From a virus: DNA of 64,000 bases. Positions 2,878 to 52,063 of this stretch are shown here, one piece after another; position 1 is the first letter of the stretch; each line of letters begins with the position of its first letter. The position numbers and the translations under genes were made by a program. The stretch covers positions 1 through 64,000 of IMG/VR virus record IMGVR_UViG_3300031718_000005. The stretch is one strand, 5' to 3'. A model generated the notes under the pieces. It was not told the origin of the DNA. It was given only the letters and a program-made list of their open reading frames with translations, and made no database searches.

Positions 2878-3050
2878 TCATAATTTTCCCACTTTTGGTG
2901 CTGCTGATAGGATTGCTCCTGCACTTGCTGAACGGCGTGACTAAACAGGCTTTCCAATCGCTCGGTATCCCAACTTACTTCGCGGGACTTTTGTTCATTT
3001 GCTACATCTATGCCCCGCGCATCATCGATCTTTTGAAGGTCCAGCACTGA
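2874..3050 (+). CDS. small two-TM membrane protein (58 aa)
   Basis: ATGA overlaps at both ends. MIIIFPLLVLLIGLLLHLL ... YFAGLLFICYIY. Holin-like size and topology only. Confidence 0.4.
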   Translation: MIIIFPLLVLLIGLLLHLLNGVTKQAFQSLGIPTYFAGLLFICYIYAPRIIDLLKVQH

Positions 3051-3211
3051 TGCCAGCGCTAGGAATGCCTAAATGTCCTCGTTGCGGTAGTTCCCGCGAC
3101 GTTACTATACCTCCAGGACAGATTTACGCTAAAGAGTACTATCTCTGCCAGTCCTGCCAGCATCTGTGGAATAGCGTTGCGCCGACTCGAAAGGAAACCC
3201 AAGATGCCTGA
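3050..3211 (+). CDS. zinc-ribbon protein
   Basis: CPRCGS ... CQSCQH. ATGA coupling. Confidence 0.5.
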   Translation: MPALGMPKCPRCGSSRDVTIPPGQIYAKEYYLCQSCQHLWNSVAPTRKETQDA

Positions 3212-3386
3212 TGTAGAGAAAGCGCCGTACTCCGGAGTCAATCTGGTTTCTCCGGATCACCCCGACGCGCATCGCTGCCCGGTTTGCAAATCCGTTCTAA
3301 CCCTTCCCAACGGTAAAGATGGGCGGCTGTGCCAGCACTGCGGGAACAAGTTCATAGAAGATGGATCAGACGCACTCAAGCCCTAG
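3204..3386 (+). CDS. zinc-ribbon protein
   Basis: CPVCKS ... CQHCGN. An AGGAAA motif lies upstream of the ATG. Confidence 0.5.
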   Translation: MPDVEKAPYSGVNLVSPDHPDAHRCPVCKSVLTLPNGKDGRLCQHCGNKFIEDGSDALKP

Positions 3387-3576
3387 GGTCGGCGCAACGC
3401 AGGCTTACGTGAACAATTGGGACCACGCCTTCGCCCGACCACAACTTGAGCGGCACTCGCATAATTGGGACAGTAATGGTTACCCTCGCTACAACGAAAG
3501 AAGCTGCCCTATCTGTGCTCGCTGGCGGGCGCTAGTAGCGGAGTGGGACGCAAATAATGCCCTGGACCGCCGCTGA
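3361..3576 (+). CDS. hypothetical protein
   Basis: 71 aa containing CPIC. Overlaps neighbours in the same direction. Confidence 0.4.
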   Translation: MDQTHSSPRVGATQAYVNNWDHAFARPQLERHSHNWDSNGYPRYNERSCPICARWRALVAEWDANNALDRR

Positions 3577-3745
3577 CGCTCACTCAAAGACCAAGAAGGC
3601 AGACAGCCCAACCGCGCAGCGGCAGTGGTCGCACGTGGCTAACGAGATGCTCGAAAAAACCGGTGACGACGCAGTAGCAATACGAGCCGCCAACTCGGTG
3701 ATCTCCAAGCGCATCCCAGACTACAAGGCCAGCCGAAAGAAATGA
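3557..3745 (+). CDS. ChaB-like small protein
   Basis: MPW... AQRQWSHVANEML ... DAVAIRAANSVISKR resembles the ChaB pattern (MPY...A..AFN.A...A.kvAWaAVK). Motif-level match only. Confidence 0.4.
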   Translation: MPWTAADAHSKTKKADSPTAQRQWSHVANEMLEKTGDDAVAIRAANSVISKRIPDYKASRKK

Positions 3746-4397: not shown

Positions 4398-6883
4398 CCA
4401 AGTACCCACGCGATCCAGCTTCCGGCATTCCCATTCCACCGGAGCCGCAGAAACGCCGCACGCCAAAGGAGCAGCAAAGCACCAGAGCCTTCACTGAACT
4501 CATTCGCCTGCACAAAATCTGGATGGATCAGCAGGCTATACTTGGAGCCGAAGAATCGCTTAAAAAGTTCCTCAAGTTGGCGTGGCCCGCGATTGAGCCT
4601 GGTTACGAGTATGTGGATGGATGGCATATCGACGCCATCTGCGATCACGTTCAGGCGGTGATGGACGGAGAGATACGGAAACTGCTTATCAACGTCCCGC
4701 CGCGTTCAACCAAATCCAGCATCGTCAGCGTTGCTCTGCCCGCATGGAGATGGATAAAAGTTCCCGAGTATCGTTGGCTGTGCTGTTCCTACGATCTAAA
4801 ATTAGCGAAGGACGATTCCCGCCGGTGTCGTGACCTCATCCGTTCAGACTGGTTCCAGAAAAACTGGGGGGACAAATTCCAGATCGACCGCAACCAGGAT
4901 GAGAAGCAATTCTTCGCCAATGACCATAAGGGCTGGCGTATCGCAGCCTCAACCGATACAGGTTCTACTGGACGCGGCGGCGACTGCATTATTTACGACG
5001 ACTTGAACGACGTCAATCAGATGAACTTCGATGCCTACATCGATAATGTAATCAATTTCCATGAACGGGTAACCCCAAGCCGGTTGAACGACCAAAAAAC
5101 AGGCACGCGCATATCTGTGCAGCAGAGGTCGCACGAACGAGACATCACCGGCCATATTCTCTCCAAGGAGTTCGGCTGGGTACACCTAAACATCCCGATG
5201 GAGTACGAGGGGAAACGACCGGCCACAGTACTTGGCTGGACCGATCCCCGCGAAACCGAGGGCGAGTTAATGTGTCCGGCAAGAACCGGCCCAACCGAAG
5301 TTGCCGATTTGAAAGTGTCCCTAGGGCCAATTGCTTACAATGGTCAGTACCAACAACGTCCTTCTCCTGGTGAAGGAGCGAAGTTCAAACGGGAATGGTG
5401 GAGATTCTACAACCCTCCCGGATTCAAGCAAACCGACGAAGCTGGGAACACGCTGCCGGTTCGCCTATCTCTTCCCGATGGAAAGATTTTAGAACGGATG
5501 CCGGTTGAATGCCCTCCGGCCTTTGAGCAAGTCTTGCAAGCCTGGGACATGGCGTTCAAAGAAGAGAAGGACTCCAACAACGTCTGCGGGCAAGCATGGG
5601 GGCGCGTAGGGTCGAATGTGTTTCTGTTGTCGCGGGACTGCTCCCGCAAGGACTTTCCCAAAACGATAGCAGCAGTGCGAAAGATGAGCCAGGAGTTTCC
5701 GTGTCCCGAAAAACTGGTGGAAGACAAGGCCAACGGACCGGCTGTCTTGCAAACCTTAAAGAACGAGATTCCGGGGCTAATCCCTTCACCGATAATTGGG
5801 GGCCTTGAATCGCTGGCAACCGCATCAACTGGTTATGTGGAGGCTGGAAATGTCTATTTGCCCAATCCCGCCGTGGCTCCTTGGGTCCTCGACTATATCG
5901 AACAGTTCGCGGTCTTCCCGCGAGGCAAGACTGATGATGATGTTGCGGCGCAGTCTCACGCTCTAAGGAGGCTGTTTGATTCGGTCGCCAATTCCTCCGT
6001 CCCAGAGTTTCGGGTTGTTCCTCGACTCAATGAGCCAAAATCAGCTTGCCACGTCGAAGAAAGTTCTGCCTTACTAGCAAGTCTCGCTCCGCACTGGCGC
6101 AGATGGGTATCGCTATCGCCTGGAGCCGCGCTGTGGTTGTGCGAGACACCCACTCGCTCTATTAGGGTTTATCGTGAACTGGATCTCGACAAGATTGACG
6201 CGCATGAAACCGGGCGGAGAATCGCCCAAGCCTCGATCCAGGACGTAACCGCTTTTACGCGGGCGATTCATGAAACCGCGAGATGGCACTGCGACATCTT
6301 CATGGAGAAGGAATGCTTCGCGGCCATCGAACCAATCGGGTGTTACGCGGAACTGGTAGCCGAAGGCATTCGCACTTATGAGCCGGATCAAGGCGACTTA
6401 TATCAACGTCAGGCCACAAAAGAAGCGTTGGGGCGGATTGCCTTTTCTCCCGAGCTAATCGAAGTAGAGGACGCGGCCTGGGACCGGTTGAGAGACTTAC
6501 TACGCTTCGCGCCCGCCGATTTCCAAACTCTCGATTACGACCGCACCGAGGCGATGAATCTCTACCGCAGAGATCCAGAAGCCTGGAGAAGCTACATGGC
6601 CTCCTGCTATGGACAGGTGCATGGCGAATGGCCCAAGATCAAGCTGTCTAGCGATTGCAAATGGACGCTTGCCGCCATGGGAGCCGCTAACCGCAATGAC
6701 AAAGCGGTAGTCAATCCGTTCATGCAGGCATTGCTGATCGGAATCACCATTCCCGATTCAGTCGCACAACCCAAACTGCGAGAAATACCGTGGGTGGGCA
6801 ACGGAGCGAAAGGCAGGCTGCCGAATCGCGGGGGAGCGCATCGCACTCGGCAAGGGATACGCCGATTCGGCATGGTGGGATGA
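4394..6883 (+). CDS. terL: terminase large subunit with a ~300-aa C-terminal extension
   Basis: Walker-A-like INVPPRSTKSS and Walker B DCIIYDDLND. Nuclease-domain signature GKTDDDVAAQSHALRRL. Total length 829 aa. Confidence 0.9.
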   Translation: MTKYPRDPASGIPIPPEPQKRRTPKEQQSTRAFTELIRLHKIWMDQQAILGAEESLKKFLKLAWPAIEPGYEYVDGWHIDAICDHVQAVMDGEIRKLLINVPPRSTKSSIVSVALPAWRWIKVPEYRWLCCSYDLKLAKDDSRRCRDLIRSDWFQKNWGDKFQIDRNQDEKQFFANDHKGWRIAASTDTGSTGRGGDCIIYDDLNDVNQMNFDAYIDNVINFHERVTPSRLNDQKTGTRISVQQRSHERDITGHILSKEFGWVHLNIPMEYEGKRPATVLGWTDPRETEGELMCPARTGPTEVADLKVSLGPIAYNGQYQQRPSPGEGAKFKREWWRFYNPPGFKQTDEAGNTLPVRLSLPDGKILERMPVECPPAFEQVLQAWDMAFKEEKDSNNVCGQAWGRVGSNVFLLSRDCSRKDFPKTIAAVRKMSQEFPCPEKLVEDKANGPAVLQTLKNEIPGLIPSPIIGGLESLATASTGYVEAGNVYLPNPAVAPWVLDYIEQFAVFPRGKTDDDVAAQSHALRRLFDSVANSSVPEFRVVPRLNEPKSACHVEESSALLASLAPHWRRWVSLSPGAALWLCETPTRSIRVYRELDLDKIDAHETGRRIAQASIQDVTAFTRAIHETARWHCDIFMEKECFAAIEPIGCYAELVAEGIRTYEPDQGDLYQRQATKEALGRIAFSPELIEVEDAAWDRLRDLLRFAPADFQTLDYDRTEAMNLYRRDPEAWRSYMASCYGQVHGEWPKIKLSSDCKWTLAAMGAANRNDKAVVNPFMQALLIGITIPDSVAQPKLREIPWVGNGAKGRLPNRGGAHRTRQGIRRFGMVG

Positions 6884-46964: not shown

Positions 46965-47173
46965 TTGGCCTTTTTCCGTCTCGCGTCCTTCTCCAGCCTC
47001 ACCAGCGCACGGCGGAGGAACTGGCGGAGCTTGGGGCTATTCGTGCCGCCACCCCACCAATTGGCGGGAGACGGGGAATGCCAAGTCAAGTACATGCCTC
47101 TAATACCCGAATTATCTTCCGGCAACAAGCGGAGATGGCTACCGTTCTCGGATACGAACTCTAGGTCCTTCAT
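46961..47173 (-). CDS. hypothetical protein
   Basis: 70 aa, ATGA-coupled. Confidence 0.45.
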   Translation of the reverse strand: MKDLEFVSENGSHLRLLPEDNSGIRGMYLTWHSPSPANWWGGGTNSPKLRQFLRRALVRLEKDARRKKAK

Positions 47174-47523
47174 TTGCCATTCTCCCGCTTGGGCCGCTTC
47201 AAGAACTGCGACCCTTTCGCTCTTTCCCTCAGGCGCTTGACGGCTTCCTCTGCTAACTCCTGCGCCATGTGGTGCCCATTGCCGTGAATCAACCCAGCGC
47301 CTTCAGCACGCTCAAACCATAATGCGGCCCGGTATACGTCATTACCCAAGTCTTCTTCAATAGACGCGAGAGTGAGAACCTTCTTCTTCCGAAGCTCCGG
47401 CTTTGGCAAAAACGCCCGCAGCGCCTGCTCGGTAATCGCGTGCATCTTTAAGCCGGTATGAGCGCTGTATTCCTTTACCGCATCCCTGATCTCGTCAGAA
47501 ACGAGCATGTTCAATCCAGGCAT
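47170..47523 (-). CDS. ribbon-helix-helix (CopG/Arc-type) regulator, probably leaderless
   Basis: MPGLNMLVSDEIRDAVKEYSAHTGLKMHAITEQALRAFL. No SD sequence, and a -10-like hexamer lies 6 nt upstream of the ATG. Confidence 0.5.
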   Translation of the reverse strand: MPGLNMLVSDEIRDAVKEYSAHTGLKMHAITEQALRAFLPKPELRKKKVLTLASIEEDLGNDVYRAALWFERAEGAGLIHGNGHHMAQELAEEAVKRLRERAKGSQFLKRPKRENGK

Positions 47524-47529
47524 GAGAAG

Positions 47530-47558
47530 AGGATAACACAGGGAAAACTGGATTGCAA
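47530..47558 (-). promoter_or_regulatory. candidate leftward promoter
   Basis: On the minus strand, TTGCAA-17 nt-TATCCT ends 6 nt before the ATG at 47523. Confidence 0.35.
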
Positions 47559-47588
47559 CAATAATTTTCAACTGACAACAAAAATGTC

Positions 47589-47617
47589 TTGACTTCGCCC
47601 TGTGGCTGGTTTACGAT
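47589..47617 (+). promoter_or_regulatory. candidate rightward early promoter
   Basis: TTGACT-17 nt-TACGAT. Divergent from the RHH gene. Confidence 0.45.
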
Positions 47618-47623
47618 TGGTTC

Positions 47624-47779
47624 ATGAGCATCGACCGCAACCTCGAAAGCAGCATGGGGAAAGTGCCAACATCCTCCGAACTAGCGGCTGAGCGGCGTAT
47701 TTGGGGCGCAGAGCCGGTGGAGCAAAGCGCTGGCGACCCATTCGATGAAACGGATTGGTATGAGGAGGAATCGGAATGA
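47624..47779 (+). CDS. small acidic protein (51 aa)
   Basis: Hand-translated MSIDRNLESS...DWYEEESE. The stop overlaps the ATG at 47776. Confidence 0.35.
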   Translation: MSIDRNLESSMGKVPTSSELAAERRIWGAEPVEQSAGDPFDETDWYEEESE

Positions 47780-48006
47780 GCGTCTGGTACGAAACCTGCA
47801 TTGAGCAGAAGGGTGAGATCCGCGATGTAATCGTGCGCGGCAATCTAGAAGGGGCGAAACGAGCTATAGACCAACTGAAAGTTGATTGGCCGAAATTCGA
47901 CATGATCTTTGTCCGGCAACACGGCAAGCGTAAACGCGGCGAAACCTCTCAGGACAGTTTTCGCGTCCTCCAGAAACTTACGATTAAACCCGAGGTAGCA
48001 GCATGA
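47776..48006 (+). CDS. hypothetical early protein
   Basis: 76 aa. GAGGAGGAA lies upstream. Confidence 0.55.
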   Translation: MSVWYETCIEQKGEIRDVIVRGNLEGAKRAIDQLKVDWPKFDMIFVRQHGKRKRGETSQDSFRVLQKLTIKPEVAA

Positions 48007-48233
48007 GCCACTACCCAGTAGGTTGCAGCGCTTCGGACGTAGACCGCTCCTCGAATGGCGATGCGGAATATGTTGACGAACTCGACGAGCTTTGCGTATT
48101 GGACTGCGGACACTCAGGAACGATTCGCAACGCTGAAGAAGCGGCAGGCCAGTTGATCTGTGAACCTTGTTTCATTGCACGGAAAGCGTTCATCACCGAG
48201 TTGATGGGCGGGTTGAGGAGCTTGGCGCAATGA
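48003..48233 (+). CDS. small Cys-containing protein
   Basis: 76 aa with CVLDCGH ... CEPC. Confidence 0.5.
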   Translation: MSHYPVGCSASDVDRSSNGDAEYVDELDELCVLDCGHSGTIRNAEEAAGQLICEPCFIARKAFITELMGGLRSLAQ

Positions 48234-48424
48234 TGCACCCTATTGAGATTCGCGAGCAACACGCCAATTTACTAGCAGAGATTCAGGAATTGCTTGGATT
48301 CTGCCAAGATTTAATGCTGGTGGTTACCGGCGGTGCACCACAGGAACAACTTAACAGTGTGCGTGGGAATATGATTCACTGTTGCGAACGCATCGGCAAT
48401 ATTGCCGCCAGGATCGGAAGGTGA
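48230..48424 (+). CDS. hypothetical protein
   Basis: 64 aa from the ATG that overlaps the upstream TGA. Confidence 0.45.
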   Translation: MMHPIEIREQHANLLAEIQELLGFCQDLMLVVTGGAPQEQLNSVRGNMIHCCERIGNIAARIGR

Positions 48425-48443
48425 TGGGCGGGTTGAGGAATCT

Positions 48444-49061
48444 ATGCCAGTAAAATCTACAATTAACGCTCTTGATCCAGTCTCGAACGATGCCGAAGTT
48501 GACATCCTCGCAGGCCAACCATACACCGTGTGCGCGACAGTCGTCGGCACTGCGCCGATTCTATTTCACCGTTGGAGCGTGGAAGGCGTGGCCGAGAAAG
48601 CCAAGGCTGCGAAGGGCAGTAAGGCCAAGAAGGAAGACAATCTCGAAAGCTACGTCTACCGTGATCAGCGCGGGCACATAGCGATTCCGGCTGAGTACTT
48701 TCGTATGGCGATTATCACGGCTGCAAAGTTCAAACAAGACCCGCGTTCGCCACGGAAATCAGCAATGGACCTTTTCAAGGCTGGGATCGCAATTGGCGAA
48801 GAGTACTGCTCTTTGGGCAAGAGCGAATGGGATTATGTTGACCAACGGCGTGTGGCGGTCCAGCGCAACGGTATTACGCGCTGTCGGCCAGCAATGCAGA
48901 CCGGCTGGAAAACTGACGTGATCCTGTCGGTTCTCTTACCGGAATACATCAACGTTGAACTTCTCAATGAAGTCATGCAGAGTGCGGGTCGGCTGATCGG
49001 CGTGGGCGATTTTCGACCGTCATACGGGCGCTTTCAGATCATTGGTTTCTCGGTAGTGTGA
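48444..49061 (+). CDS. hypothetical early protein
   Basis: 205 aa. GAGGAA lies upstream. C-terminal GRLIGVGDFRPSYGRFQI. Confidence 0.55.
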   Translation: MPVKSTINALDPVSNDAEVDILAGQPYTVCATVVGTAPILFHRWSVEGVAEKAKAAKGSKAKKEDNLESYVYRDQRGHIAIPAEYFRMAIITAAKFKQDPRSPRKSAMDLFKAGIAIGEEYCSLGKSEWDYVDQRRVAVQRNGITRCRPAMQTGWKTDVILSVLLPEYINVELLNEVMQSAGRLIGVGDFRPSYGRFQIIGFSVV

Positions 49062-49360
49062 GCCGAGGCTAGGCGAGATCTGGCGAGGTATGGCGTGGAT
49101 GGGTCAGGCGTGGTTTCGGAAAGGCGTGACACGGTATGGTTAGGCTGGGCCCGGTGAGGCGCGGTAGTGTTTGGTGTGGCGCGTTCGGGCTGGGCACGGT
49201 TCCCTATGGTGTAGTTTGGAGCGGTTAGCCGAGGCGAGGCGGTGTCAGGTTCGGCAGGATGCGGTATGGCGTGGCACGCTCAGGAGCGGTATGGTGCGTT
49301 CAGACGGGCCATGGTCTGGTTCAGCATGGTCGGGACAGGTCAGGTCAGCTAAGGCATGGA
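49062..49360 (+). repeat. G/T-skewed tract with 5-nt-phased GG (degenerate NNGGY pentamers)
   Basis: Hand count in 5-nt register: 35 of 49 pentamers from 49116 have GG at positions 3-4. Of the preceding 11 pentamers, 9 have GG at positions 2-3. Confidence 0.75.
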
Positions 49361-49369
49361 TTATTAAAA

Positions 49370-49570
49370 ATGGAAAACATCACAGAAGAACAGGTTTTGA
49401 AGTGGTTCGAGACTGCCGAATTACAAGACGCCATCGTCATCAACGCTACGGCTGCTGGCGTTATTCGGATGAGGCAGCAGCAGAACGGGCGGAAACGCCG
49501 CAGTGACGCGGGCCAGAAGCGGAAGGCTGAGGAGCCGGTGTTGAATTTCGATCCAAAGGACAGGCCATAA
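49370..49570 (+). CDS. small basic protein
   Basis: MENITEEQVLKWFE... 66 aa. The part of ORF 49259-49570 upstream of this ATG lies in the pentamer tract and was rejected. Confidence 0.45.
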   Translation: MENITEEQVLKWFETAELQDAIVINATAAGVIRMRQQQNGRKRRSDAGQKRKAEEPVLNFDPKDRP

Positions 49571-50461
49571 ATGTTTGACATCATCAATCGATATACGCAA
49601 GCTGTGCTTTACCACAGCGAGACTGCCACTACCGTCAAAGAAGCTGTCGTGGCGGCTGTCGCTACTAAAGCCAACCTGCGCGATGCCGACCTGGGCGGTG
49701 CCTACCTGCGCGGTGCCAACCTGCGCGATGCCGACCTGGGCGGTGCCAACCTGGGCGGTGCCTACCTGCGCGGTGCCAACCTGCGCGATGCCGACCTGGG
49801 CGATGCCGACCTGGGCGGTGCCGACCTGCGCGATGCCAACCTGGGCGGTGCCAACCTGGGCGGTGCCGACCTGCGCGGTGCCAACCTGCGCGGTGCCAAC
49901 CTGCGCGATGCCAACCTGGGCGGTGCCAACCTGGGCGGTGCCTACCTGCGCGGTGCCGACCTGCGCGATGCCAACCTGGGCGGTGCCGACCTGGGCGGTG
50001 CCTACCTGCGCGGTGCCAACCTGCGCGATGCCGACCTGGGCGGTGCCAACCTGCGCGATGCCAACCTGGGCGGTGCCGACCTGGGCGAATTCAGGACCGA
50101 TCTAATTGCTGAGATTCTGAAACTGCCTGATGAGCTTGAAAATCTTCGCGATCAGTTGATTGCCGGTAAAATCAGCGGCTCGACCTATACCGGCGAGTGT
50201 GCTTGTTTGGCTGGGACAATCGCTAAGCATCGTGGGCTCACTACAATCTCAAGCGGAGACGTAATGTCGGACAATGCCGTAAAGTTCCAGGTTGACAGCT
50301 CTTCGCCTCGTGAAAAATGGTTCCTGAATGTCCAGAAGGGCGACACGCCGGAAACAAGCCAGATCGCCAAGATCACGCTCGGCTGGATTGAGGAGGCGAT
50401 TGCGATACGCGATCACATCCGAGCAGTACCGGCGAAGCTGCTGGAGGAGATAAAGCGATGA
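49571..50461 (+). CDS. pentapeptide-repeat protein with a C-terminal CxxG-family domain
   Basis: 28 consecutive A(N/D/Y)L(R/G)(G/D) pentapeptides, followed by ...YTGECACLAGTIAKHRGL... Confidence 0.85.
   Translation: MFDIINRYTQAVLYHSETATTVKEAVVAAVATKANLRDADLGGAYLRGANLRDADLGGANLGGAYLRGANLRDADLGDADLGGADLRDANLGGANLGGADLRGANLRGANLRDANLGGANLGGAYLRGADLRDANLGGADLGGAYLRGANLRDADLGGANLRDANLGGADLGEFRTDLIAEILKLPDELENLRDQLIAGKISGSTYTGECACLAGTIAKHRGLTTISSGDVMSDNAVKFQVDSSSPREKWFLNVQKGDTPETSQIAKITLGWIEEAIAIRDHIRAVPAKLLEEIKR
49670..50089 (+). repeat. 28 tandem 15-nt units GCC(A/G/T)ACCTG(C/G)GCG(G/A)T
   Basis: All 28 units were enumerated by hand. Only positions 4, 10 and 14 vary, plus position 15 in the last unit. 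Confidence 0.95.
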
Positions 50462-50655
50462 CGAACCTTGACTTGATTCGTGAATTGCGCGGGAATGTCT
50501 GTCGATGCGGCAAGCCCAAACAACCGAAACAAACATTCTGTCGGAAGTGTTACTTCTCGCTTCCAGAGGAAAAACGGCAAGCGCTTTACAGTCGCGTTGG
50601 CGAAGGATACGCCGAAGCCTACGAGGACGCAATTTGCGAACTGGACGCAAGGTAA
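50458..50655 (+). CDS. small zinc-binding protein
   Basis: CRCGKPKQPKQTFCRKC. ATGA coupling. Confidence 0.5.
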   Translation: MTNLDLIRELRGNVCRCGKPKQPKQTFCRKCYFSLPEEKRQALYSRVGEGYAEAYEDAICELDAR

Positions 50656-50682
50656 CGGTACTTCAGAAGGATTTAAGCCCGC

Positions 50683-50977
50683 AACTAGCGTGGTGAGAAT
50701 GTTTGTAGCTGGCGTCGGAGTGGAAAGACACTCAGGCAGGGGTGCTGGATAAGCGAACCCAGGCAGGTTTCAGCAGATTAAGTTCGTAGCGCTGCCGATC
50801 AACTTCATAGCCGGTGAAAAACGGCACGCCAGCAAAGTAACTAGCGGGGTGAGAACTGAGTTAGTCTGATTTCACCTAGGAGCCGGAACGCGCACAGGTT
50901 GAAGGTTTTGGTGAACTGCGCAATTGGGTCAACCGCGATTGCGTAGCGGCTCCGAATGAAGGCAGATTGGTGAACTG
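50683..50977. promoter_or_regulatory. iteron-like direct repeats in a 390-nt intergenic region
   Basis: AACTAGCG(T/G)GGTGAGAA(T/C)TG at 50683 and 50839. TGAAGG-n-TTGGTGAACTG at 50908-50918 and 50967-50977. Confidence 0.5.
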
Positions 50978-51044
50978 AAGGCCCTTTTCCCTAGGCGGAT
51001 CTAGACCGCTGTATGGCTTAACAGCGTACCAGGGGAGAGGGGCC

Positions 51045-51290
51045 TTGAGTTCATGGGAGGTTCTATTGGCTGAGCAATTGGTTGAGGATCGCATCGCGGC
51101 GGCGAGACTGGCTCGGGCGAGAGCTTTGGCGGTCTTGGTAAAGAACGATTGCATTCGGCTCTTGATCGGGTTGACCGACGACGAATGGCAAAACATGGCG
51201 GTTCAGGCCAAGATCAACGCTCAGAAGCCGCCTAGCGAAGAGACGCGGCAGATGTTACTGGATATCGTGAAAGGGTGGAAGTGCGAATGA
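51045..51290 (+). CDS. hypothetical protein
   Basis: TTG start. 81 aa, helical. Confidence 0.5.
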   Translation: MSSWEVLLAEQLVEDRIAAARLARARALAVLVKNDCIRLLIGLTDDEWQNMAVQAKINAQKPPSEETRQMLLDIVKGWKCE

Positions 51291-52063
51291 GCGAACAGCA
51301 AAACCTTGTGGTGCAGGACGAGCCGAAGGCAGTAGTTCCGATCACCATCTACGAGATATTCGCGCAACTAGCCCGCGATCCTAACGTTGACCCAGTTCGC
51401 ATTCAACAGTTGATGGAACTGCAAGAGCGGGCTGAGGCACGGCAAGCCGAGAAGGAGTTCATTGCCGCCATGAACCGCTTGCAGCCGAAACTGCCACGGA
51501 TCACAAAACAGGGCAAGATCGCATTTGAGTCTCAGCGTACTGGCCAATCGCAGAACACGCCCTATGCTCGGTTCGAGGACATCGACGCCAAGATCCGACC
51601 ATTGCTGCATGACGAGGGGTTCTCAATCAGTTTCGGCACGGCTGCGCTAGAGAAGGGCGGCATTCTCATTACAGCCACATTGAGCCACGCGGCGGGGCAC
51701 AGTCGCACAGAGTCCATGCCGTTGCCGTTTGACACCAGCGGCAGCAAGAACAGCATACAGGCCGTGGGAAGCACAATGGCGTACGGGAAACGGTATTTAA
51801 TTTGCGCCATGCTGAACATCATCACCGTGGGTGAAGATGACGACGGCAACGCTGTCTCGTTCATCGACCAACAGCAACTCAACAGCATCATGGACCTGAT
51901 TATCGCTTCCGAGATGGACGAAACTTCTCAGGCCGCGTTTCGCAAGCTGATGAACGTGGAGCGGATTGAGGATATCCGCAAATCTAACTATCCGAAGGCC
52001 ATGTCCGCGCTGCACGCCAAGTTCAAGAAGTGGCGGCAAGAACATCCCGAGGTTTCTGTGTGA
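51287..52063 (+). CDS. erf: ERF-family single-strand annealing protein
   Basis: PYARFEDIDAKIRPLL and QAVGSTMAYGKRYLICAMLNI match the P22 Erf-type motifs (GATSSYARKYCLNGLFGI). Confidence 0.75.
   Translation: MSEQQNLVVQDEPKAVVPITIYEIFAQLARDPNVDPVRIQQLMELQERAEARQAEKEFIAAMNRLQPKLPRITKQGKIAFESQRTGQSQNTPYARFEDIDAKIRPLLHDEGFSISFGTAALEKGGILITATLSHAAGHSRTESMPLPFDTSGSKNSIQAVGSTMAYGKRYLICAMLNIITVGEDDDGNAVSFIDQQQLNSIMDLIIASEMDETSQAAFRKLMNVERIEDIRKSNYPKAMSALHAKFKKWRQEHPEVSV

Follow-up and report, generated by a model that had tools for sequence, protein, structure and literature searches.

A viral tract with GG phased every 5 nt is very probably the guide array of a stand-alone VIPR locus

What kind of element would hold the dinucleotide GG in a 5-nt register over some 300 nt of viral DNA, and with which gene does it belong? 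The tract in question spans positions 49060-49360 of a 64,000-nt stretch (positions 1 to 64,000 of IMG/VR virus record IMGVR_UViG_3300031718_000005; the whole stretch is called the window below), and it follows directly on a gene for a small RAMP protein. Here, we assign 48444-49360 with high confidence to VIPR (Viral Interference Programmable Repeat), as a locus in which a stand-alone vipr gene is followed by the array of repeats that makes up its guide RNA (vrRNA).

The repeat unit of the tract is NNGGY. An earlier sequence-only reading had counted GG at positions 3 and 4 in 35 of 49 consecutive pentamers from 49116 and at positions 2 and 3 in 9 of the 11 pentamers from 49061, with a phase slip near 49115. 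Both counts were reproduced, the in-phase examples given with them were correct (ATGGT, five times; GCGGT, four; CAGGT and GAGGC, three each; TGGGC, twice), and the slip proved to be a gain of 1 nt, an extra T at 49115, with GG falling at position 2 modulo 5 over 49067-49112 and at 3 modulo 5 over 49118-49358. That reading had also called the plus strand C-poor; across 49062-49360 we counted 132 G, 65 T, 57 C, and 45 A, so the strand is indeed G-rich (44% G; GC skew of the tract, +0.40), but the rarest base is A and not C. The period-5 GG spectral power was 31.0, compared with a mean of 0.98 (standard deviation, 0.96; maximum, 7.2) in 5000 dinucleotide-preserving shuffles, which makes the signal significant in the shuffle comparison set beforehand, and the power at all other periods from 2 to 20 was 1.3 or less. 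No second GG-phased region at the level of the tract was found in a sliding scan of the 64-kb window. Tandem Repeats Finder reported only a trivial 10-mer and no repeat-spacer structure; it misses the array because the units are too divergent.

Counted from 49060, where the register begins within the upstream gene's stop codon, the array comprises 60 units in two phases, and GG is present in 44 of them (Table 1). Among the GG units of the tract, position 5 is a pyrimidine in 86% and A in only 14%, and the NN at positions 1 and 2 is near uniform. The units of block 1, which extends from within the vipr stop codon to the phase slip, are gagcc, GAGGC, TAGGC, gagat, CTGGC, GAGGT, ATGGC, GTGGA, TGGGT, CAGGC, and GTGGT. 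Block 2 includes 14 degenerate units, mostly with single substitutions. We agree with the earlier proposals that a 5-nt period is not derived from codons and that the element acts at the level of the nucleic acid.

Table 1. Coordinates of the vipr gene and of the parts of its array in the window
Feature	Position	Strand	Description
vipr gene, 205 aa	48444-49061	+	Minimal RAMP (Cas7-like) protein
vrRNA array block 1	49060-49114	+	11 in-phase NNGGY units, 9 with GG
+1-nt phase slip (extra T)	49115-49115	+	GG position modulo 5 changes from 2 to 3
vrRNA array block 2	49116-49360	+	49 in-phase NNGGY units, 35 with GG

VIPR was first described between April and June 2026, and in the literature searched it had no mention outside the founding preprints (bioRxiv 10.64898/2026.04.26.720920 and 10.64898/2026.04.26.720927), which supply the background given here. 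A published system pairs a RAMP protein of about 20 kDa with vrRNAs of 9 to 16 YNNGG repeats, in which a conserved GGY alternates with a hypervariable NN, and a vrRNA locus takes at least 4 tandem YNNGG units in intergenic DNA beside vipr; the founding paper counts 667 systems, and the characterized ones of type II come from Escherichia phage SUSP1 and a Pseudomonas fulva prophage. One Vipr protomer binds each repeat to form a helical filament, with the GGY bases flipped out and G1, G2, and Y3 held by SUSP1 residues H17, D177, R138, W178, and R179. The NN dinucleotides pair with DNA as NNx, one base being skipped, often at the codon wobble position, and the R-loop triplex arising from this pairing silences transcription. 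The natural targets described are satellites, prophages, and other VIPR loci, and no self-targeting above chance is reported for the published systems. Seven types are distinguished, with arrays that are tailed, “staggered” (tail-less), separated by hammerhead ribozymes, or single; the vrRNA of type II is capped by an invariant structured 3′ tail (40 nt, with a pseudoknot), and other types vary in this respect. Six vap accessory genes are known, and some vipr genes stand alone. Internal repeat degeneracy is described as frequent, and GGY mutations in SUSP1 abolish silencing (10.64898/2026.04.26.720920 and 10.64898/2026.04.26.720927).

The gene upstream of the tract encodes a protein of this kind. 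Its open reading frame (ORF) starts mechanically at TTG 48402, the likely start being ATG 48444, with GAGGA just before it, and its product is 100% identical to a database protein of 205 aa (P0001). A profile built from 50 homologues (hmmsearch) matched PDB entry 36pp_D, “SUSP1 Vipr protein” (E = 9.4e-11, residues 28-198), which was the one PDB sequence that the family profile matched, and the sequence similarity between the window and SUSP1 proteins is remote and seen only at the profile level. In the HMMER alignment, SUSP1 H17, R138, D177, W178, and R179 align with window H42, R148, D189, F190, and R191, and across the 50 homologues no variation is seen at H42, R148, D189, or R191, and conservation of F190 is 90% or more. 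The change from W178 to F190 keeps an aromatic side chain for stacking. The ORF is intact, all of the contact residues are present, and the C-terminal G-loop reads GVGDFRPSYGRF. Foldseek searches with the AlphaFold2 (AF2) model of the protein (predicted local distance difference test, 83.8; predicted template modeling score, 0.78) gave type VII Cas7, Csm3, and gRAMP as top matches in the PDB (E = 5e-7 to 5e-5). Other annotation resources say little of it: the product matches phrog_4652 (unknown function) only and had no match to a Pfam family or in PADLOC. The Vipr family comprises 5422 database proteins at E ≤ 1e-3. The window protein is predicted to polymerize on the repeat RNA with one protomer per pentamer.

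If the tract is the RNA partner of this protein, the two should be found together elsewhere, and they are. Back-translated searches of IMG/VR yielded 80 related loci, 77 of them unique, with proteins 50-72% identical, and in essentially all 80 the period-5 GG signal peaks immediately next to vipr and on its strand. An array occurs within 200 nt of vipr in 73 of the 77 unique loci, always with GG on the strand of the gene (on both sides in 38 loci, only upstream in 16, and only downstream in 19); three of the remaining four have an array 250-450 nt off, and the fourth is too short to judge. These arrays range from roughly 8 to 167 units, with a pyrimidine at position 5 in 88% and near-uniform NN. 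NN content, array length, and neighboring genes all vary from locus to locus; only vipr was conserved in all-against-all clustering of the flanking ORFs, and none of the neighbors of the window vipr recurs in the 80 loci, apart from Erf in 2 of them.

Comparison of close relatives indicates how these arrays change. In the closest relative (L147; 88% identical protein), the GG register is kept from the stop codon, but the array, of 31 units, differs in NN, and the genes downstream are unrelated. Relatives at 80% identity carry entirely different arrays in different phage backbones. In another pair of loci with closely similar vipr genes, L035 (200-1160) and L037 (3860-4900), column identity averages 91% in the locus alignment, and the arrays differ by exact 10-, 25-, and 50-nt indels, suggesting that arrays evolve by gain and loss of whole pentamer units. 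These differences among relatives in register, NN, and indels are incompatible with a protein-coding frame, and the homologous loci have no conserved reading frame; the earlier description of the tract as non-coding therefore stands.

The same loci inform on how arrays are divided and where they end. The +1 slip is the commonest phase break in the family (50 of the 87 breaks no longer than 12 nt), and the lengths of in-phase blocks peak broadly at 8-19 units and extend to 123. The +1 slip at 49115 may likewise be a guide boundary between blocks 1 and 2, block 1 being of a length that falls within the published 9 to 16 repeats per vrRNA, and block 2 probably joins several guides end to end, with neither tail nor spacer to separate them. 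Degenerate units do not appear to serve as regular boundaries, as their autocorrelation is flat and shows no periodic placement. In the family, a terminator hairpin closes many of the downstream arrays, and the vipr ribosome-binding site marks the end of the upstream ones, so that the arrays look like untranslated regions (UTRs) of the vipr transcript. At some block boundaries of the arrays in loci L002 and L016, we observed short GC stems with GNRA-like tetraloops (e.g., acgggCCGAAAGGccggt, acgggCGGAAACGccggt, and acgggCCGCAAGGccggt), which may mark guide boundaries or serve in processing; the window array has no such stems.

The one GenBank phage with a Vipr homologue (55% identity, 2995-3612) is DSL-LC04 (OR003939.1; L393), a complete genome in which the gene is annotated as a “helix-turn-helix transcriptional regulator.” Upstream of this gene, an unannotated gap of about 300 nt (2678-2971) contains four blocks with about 49 NNGGY units in total. 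At the DNA level, the vipr-plus-array region of the window weakly matches one record among the GenBank phages.

To ask what the NN positions encode, we converted the family arrays to NNx patterns and searched them against the window and the related loci (1.3 Mb counting both strands). With one base skipped, the L002 array (5005-5054) matches L016 at 6076-6105 over 10 of 10 consecutive units (20/20 bases), and reciprocally the L016 array (5268-5342) matches L002 at 5163-5207 in 27 of 30 bases, in the start region of the homologous gene. Shuffled NN scored 18 at most, skips of 0 or 2 gave chance scores (≤16), and a skip of 3 merely recovered the arrays themselves. Both sites fall within the same homologous gene (about 700 aa), which follows closely on the array in either locus and has a weak Pfam match to the P22 portal. 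In L016, the match is in frame and the base skipped is the wobble base, and the L002 allele of the same gene differs at two codons (QTVGVNSYKS versus QTVGMNNYKS), differences that would avoid self-targeting. Degenerate units also match at NN in these cases. Small as the sample is, the two matches would lend independent support to the 1-nt-skip rule and to conflict between sister phages in this clade.

Taken together, the Vipr homology, the contact residues, and the NNGGY array make the tract, by definition, a vrRNA array beside a bona fide Vipr gene. What carries this assignment is the repeat statistics, the homology, fold, and contact residues of the protein, the strand-specific linkage to an array with variable NN, and the support for a 1-nt skip within the clade. 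Expression, processing, ribonucleoprotein formation, silencing, and target identity at this locus we infer by analogy, and the following mechanism is drawn from the published work on SUSP1 and P. fulva. Transcription of the array would follow the + strand, the array probably forming the 3′ end region of the vipr transcript. Vipr protomers, one per pentamer, would flip out and sequester GGY through the RRM core, thumb, and G-loop and so build a helical filament, leaving the NN exposed to pair with DNA as NNxNNx..., with every third target base skipped. The gapped R-loop triplex would then block transcription of the target gene, which would most likely belong to a competing phage or another mobile element. 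Under this mechanism, the GG phasing that first draws the eye is a protein-binding scaffold, and the random-looking NN is the payload.

The fold of the window protein invites comparison with class 1 CRISPR-Cas, in which Cas7 or Csm3 forms a filament on the CRISPR RNA (crRNA). The RRM core, thumb, and G-loop are shared (Foldseek E of about 1e-6), as is the use of one protomer per RNA period, with a thumb that flips out bases at a fixed interval. However, the class 1 period is 6 nt with one base flipped and five read, whereas that of VIPR is 5 nt with three sequestered and two read, and the window has no repeat-spacer array, Cas6/Cas5 handle, cas1/cas2, or large or small subunits; moreover, the window element is viral and class 1 CRISPR-Cas is cellular. 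We therefore rejected a class 1 CRISPR-Cas identity, given a period of 5 rather than 6 and the absence of cas genes among the neighbors (PADLOC and Pfam).

If the array does guide Vipr to DNA, its targets should be recognizable by the same code. Block 1, converted in this way, gives the NNx-coded pattern GAnGAnTAnGAnCTnGAnATnGTnTGnCAnGT. We scanned viral, genome, and metagenome collections for exact patterns of seeds of 7-9 units; the window itself held no self-target above chance, and the 80 loci gave no target for the window array. In the viral collection, no seed match extended, and one seed had at least 120 matches, with none extending among the matches listed. A 16-base seed, ATNCTNTCNATNCGNCANCANCA, had 71 viral matches (L314-L384), where fewer than 10 were expected, and none extends along the array; about 25 of the 71 carry ATACTGTCGATGCGACAACAGCAGGATCG and represent one conserved (repeated marine-phage) gene found in a group of viral contigs, and the rest are CAnCAnCA low-complexity sequence. 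The metagenome collection gave no extending match and no HepT gene among its matches.

The block 1 seed had six matches in the genome collection, one of which continues over the full 11 units (22/22 bases). The site (L269, 1810-1841; JBFWVR010000010.1) belongs to a Vicinamibacterales metagenome-assembled genome (MAG) and lies in frame, with the wobble position skipped, in a gene for a 117-aa HepT-like HEPN toxin (PF01934, E = 9e-22), where it encodes ...RNRIVHEYDDYDLDIVWHV.... An NTP-transferase-domain protein is encoded upstream and a DNA methylase downstream, surroundings that look like a defense island. A search seeded on the HepT protein led to a second MAG (L386, 3244-3276) with a near-match of 20/22 in the same narrow HepT clade. 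We estimate the chance of such a match across the seeds examined at about 0.2, or about 0.07 if the coincidence of frame is included; the GC content (55% versus 68%) speaks against the HepT gene as a target, as does the lack of a second guide match within 8 kb around the site. On sequence grounds, this gene is thus a weak lead to a target of block 1. A bolder proposal would combine this lead with the architecture seen in the relatives: the clade would be a distinct form of VIPR, with tail-less guide tracts of up to 167 units in mRNA UTRs, bounded mainly by +1 slips, and a protein that coats its own transcript without dedicated processing, and block 1 would be a guide against a host HepT/HEPN defense gene. 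We consider that combination rather unlikely; if the part concerning HepT were true, VIPR would be an RNA-guided anti-defense tool.

Set against type II VIPR, the window locus shares a small (~20 kDa), phage-encoded RAMP protein with the same GGY-contact residues, and an adjoining same-strand YNNGG array with conserved GGY and variable NN, and in its sister loci a 1-nt-skip code gives in-frame, wobble-skipping matches in rival phage genes. It differs in that the tracts are continuous, with 60 units in the window and as many as 167 in relatives, and in that the arrays lie in the 5′ and/or 3′ UTR of vipr and are broken mainly by +1-nt slips. Several other observations weigh against a VIPR assignment. 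Unlike in type II VIPR, the window vipr is alone, and no vap accessory gene was found beside it or by comparison of flanking ORFs across the 80 loci. Also unlike in type II VIPR, guides are not separated by a conserved 40-nt 3′ tail or pseudoknot, and among 114 family arrays we found no conserved 3′ tail, pseudoknot, terminal unit, or flanking k-mer after the array. Block 2 runs through 49 units with no visible guide boundary. No promoter or terminator was predicted around the array, nor any terminator after it. The pattern scans of the viral, genome, and metagenome collections revealed no convincing natural target. Finally, about 28% of the 60 units have no GG, and GGY mutations are the very changes that abolished silencing in SUSP1 (bioRxiv preprint).

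Part of this is answered by the published variety itself. Since published array architectures vary, a tail-less window array does not exclude membership in VIPR, and the “staggered arrays” and stand-alone vipr genes mentioned in the published text may cover the form seen in the window. A 66-aa ORF (49370-49570, +) begins 10 nt past the end of the array; it had no match in Pfam, PHROG, or PADLOC and no homologue beside vipr elsewhere and, judged from its sequence, is not a recognizable vap gene. An Rfam scan of 47000-52000 with E values up to 10 found nothing relevant and no hammerhead ribozyme.

The loss of GG from so many units, the longest perfect GG runs of only 7 units, and the lack of a target, terminator, or tail could all be explained if the locus were a decayed, nonfunctional remnant of a VIPR system. 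However, the degeneracy is in line with the family mean of 24%, and the published work describes internal degeneracy as frequent. Of the degenerate units of the window, 61% still have G at position 3 and 79% a pyrimidine at position 5, and block 2 stays in register through its 49 units, which is not what drift with indels would produce. Degenerate units also pair correctly in the L002-to-L016 match, and the intact vipr ORF with its contact residues argues in the same direction. We consider decay improbable.

Bacillus TRAP offers an analogy for a protein that reads a short purine motif about every 5 nt on single-stranded RNA: on the trp leader RNA, 11 (G/U)AG triplets are spaced by 2-3 nt, and each is bound by one subunit of a homo-oligomer. 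The likeness goes no further than analogy, as TRAP has an unrelated fold, forms a ring and not a helical filament, has spacers that carry no information, and acts in attenuation and not in DNA targeting. It does bear on the proposal in the sequence-only reading that the tract is a GG-motif RNA sponge, that is, a decoy that titrates a CsrA/RsmA-like or TRAP-like RNA-binding protein and guides nothing to DNA. The short, regularly spaced motif would suit such a role, as the (G/U)AG repeats of TRAP or the GGA motifs of RsmZ do, and a partner protein presumably binds each GG. However, the Rfam scan returned no CsrB, RsmY, or RsmZ match, and the motif is GGY and not GGA in a loop, with A at position 5 as rare as noted above. 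Moreover, the conserved partner is a RAMP protein homologous to an RNA-guided DNA binder demonstrated by experiment, and the NN strings of sister loci match rival phage genes under a skip of 1, which a sponge would not need. The idea of a protein-bound GG RNA thus survives, GGY being the handle in published VIPR, whereas that of a sponge is not supported, NN being the part that would carry guide information; we regard the sponge as very improbable beside a vrRNA array.

That reading had also proposed an oriented array of Chi-like motifs that would attenuate RecBCD/AddAB in concert with erf and exo, for which the G/T-rich strand, an Erf gene 1.9 kb downstream, and the occurrence of AGCGG (twice) and GCGGT (five times) in the tract could be cited. 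AGCGG and GCGGT recur because both fit NNGGY, however, and no 5- to 8-mer recurs beyond the NNGGY expectation, nor is there a fixed motif beyond GGY. The tract lacks the E. coli Chi octamer, GCTGGTGG, Chi sites do not keep to a strict 5-nt register, and across about 77 loci linkage and orientation follow vipr and not recombination genes, Erf being near in so few. We give the Chi hypothesis next to no credence. The remaining proposal, a replication origin in which (GGNNN)n forms a two-tetrad G-quadruplex or R-loop on the non-template strand, is about as hard to credit: the G-rich + strand, the regular GG runs with 3-nt loops, and an RNA folding z score of -2.2 (marginally more stable than shuffles and uninformative) would be compatible with it, but there are no iterons, AT-rich unwinding element, or adjacent replication-initiator gene, a G-quadruplex does not need the pyrimidine at position 5, the published structures show the Gs held by protein, and the same type of tract travels with one protein gene, in its 5′ or 3′ UTR, through dozens of unrelated phage backbones.

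Beyond the array lies a pentapeptide-repeat gene (49571-50461, +) that is itself repetitive, with near-perfect 15-nt DNA repeats and a secondary period-5 CC signal (power, 9.2). Apart from the weak match noted above, it alone matched GenBank phages at the DNA level: over about 400 nt it is 80-90% identical to pentapeptide-repeat genes of Salmonella P22-like, Rheinheimera, Edwardsiella, and Acinetobacter phages. A pentapeptide-repeat gene beside vipr was found in none of the 80 related loci.

On the assignment favored here, the window locus is a further example of VIPR and not an unknown element. A VIPR guide array could be recovered by plain reading of raw sequence, while annotation pipelines still miss this class of element: PHROGs lists vipr as of “unknown function,” Pfam has no family for it, and the arrays go unannotated. 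The clade is far larger than the 667 systems of the founding paper, and its architecture, a stand-alone gene with UTR-embedded, tail-less arrays, departs from that of the systems characterized by experiment. The gain is better annotation and a set of natural long arrays for the study of guide biogenesis, and not a new principle. For the biology of the family, the clade adds computational support, independent of the founding work, both for a code with a 1-nt skip and for sister phages targeting each other in a structural gene.

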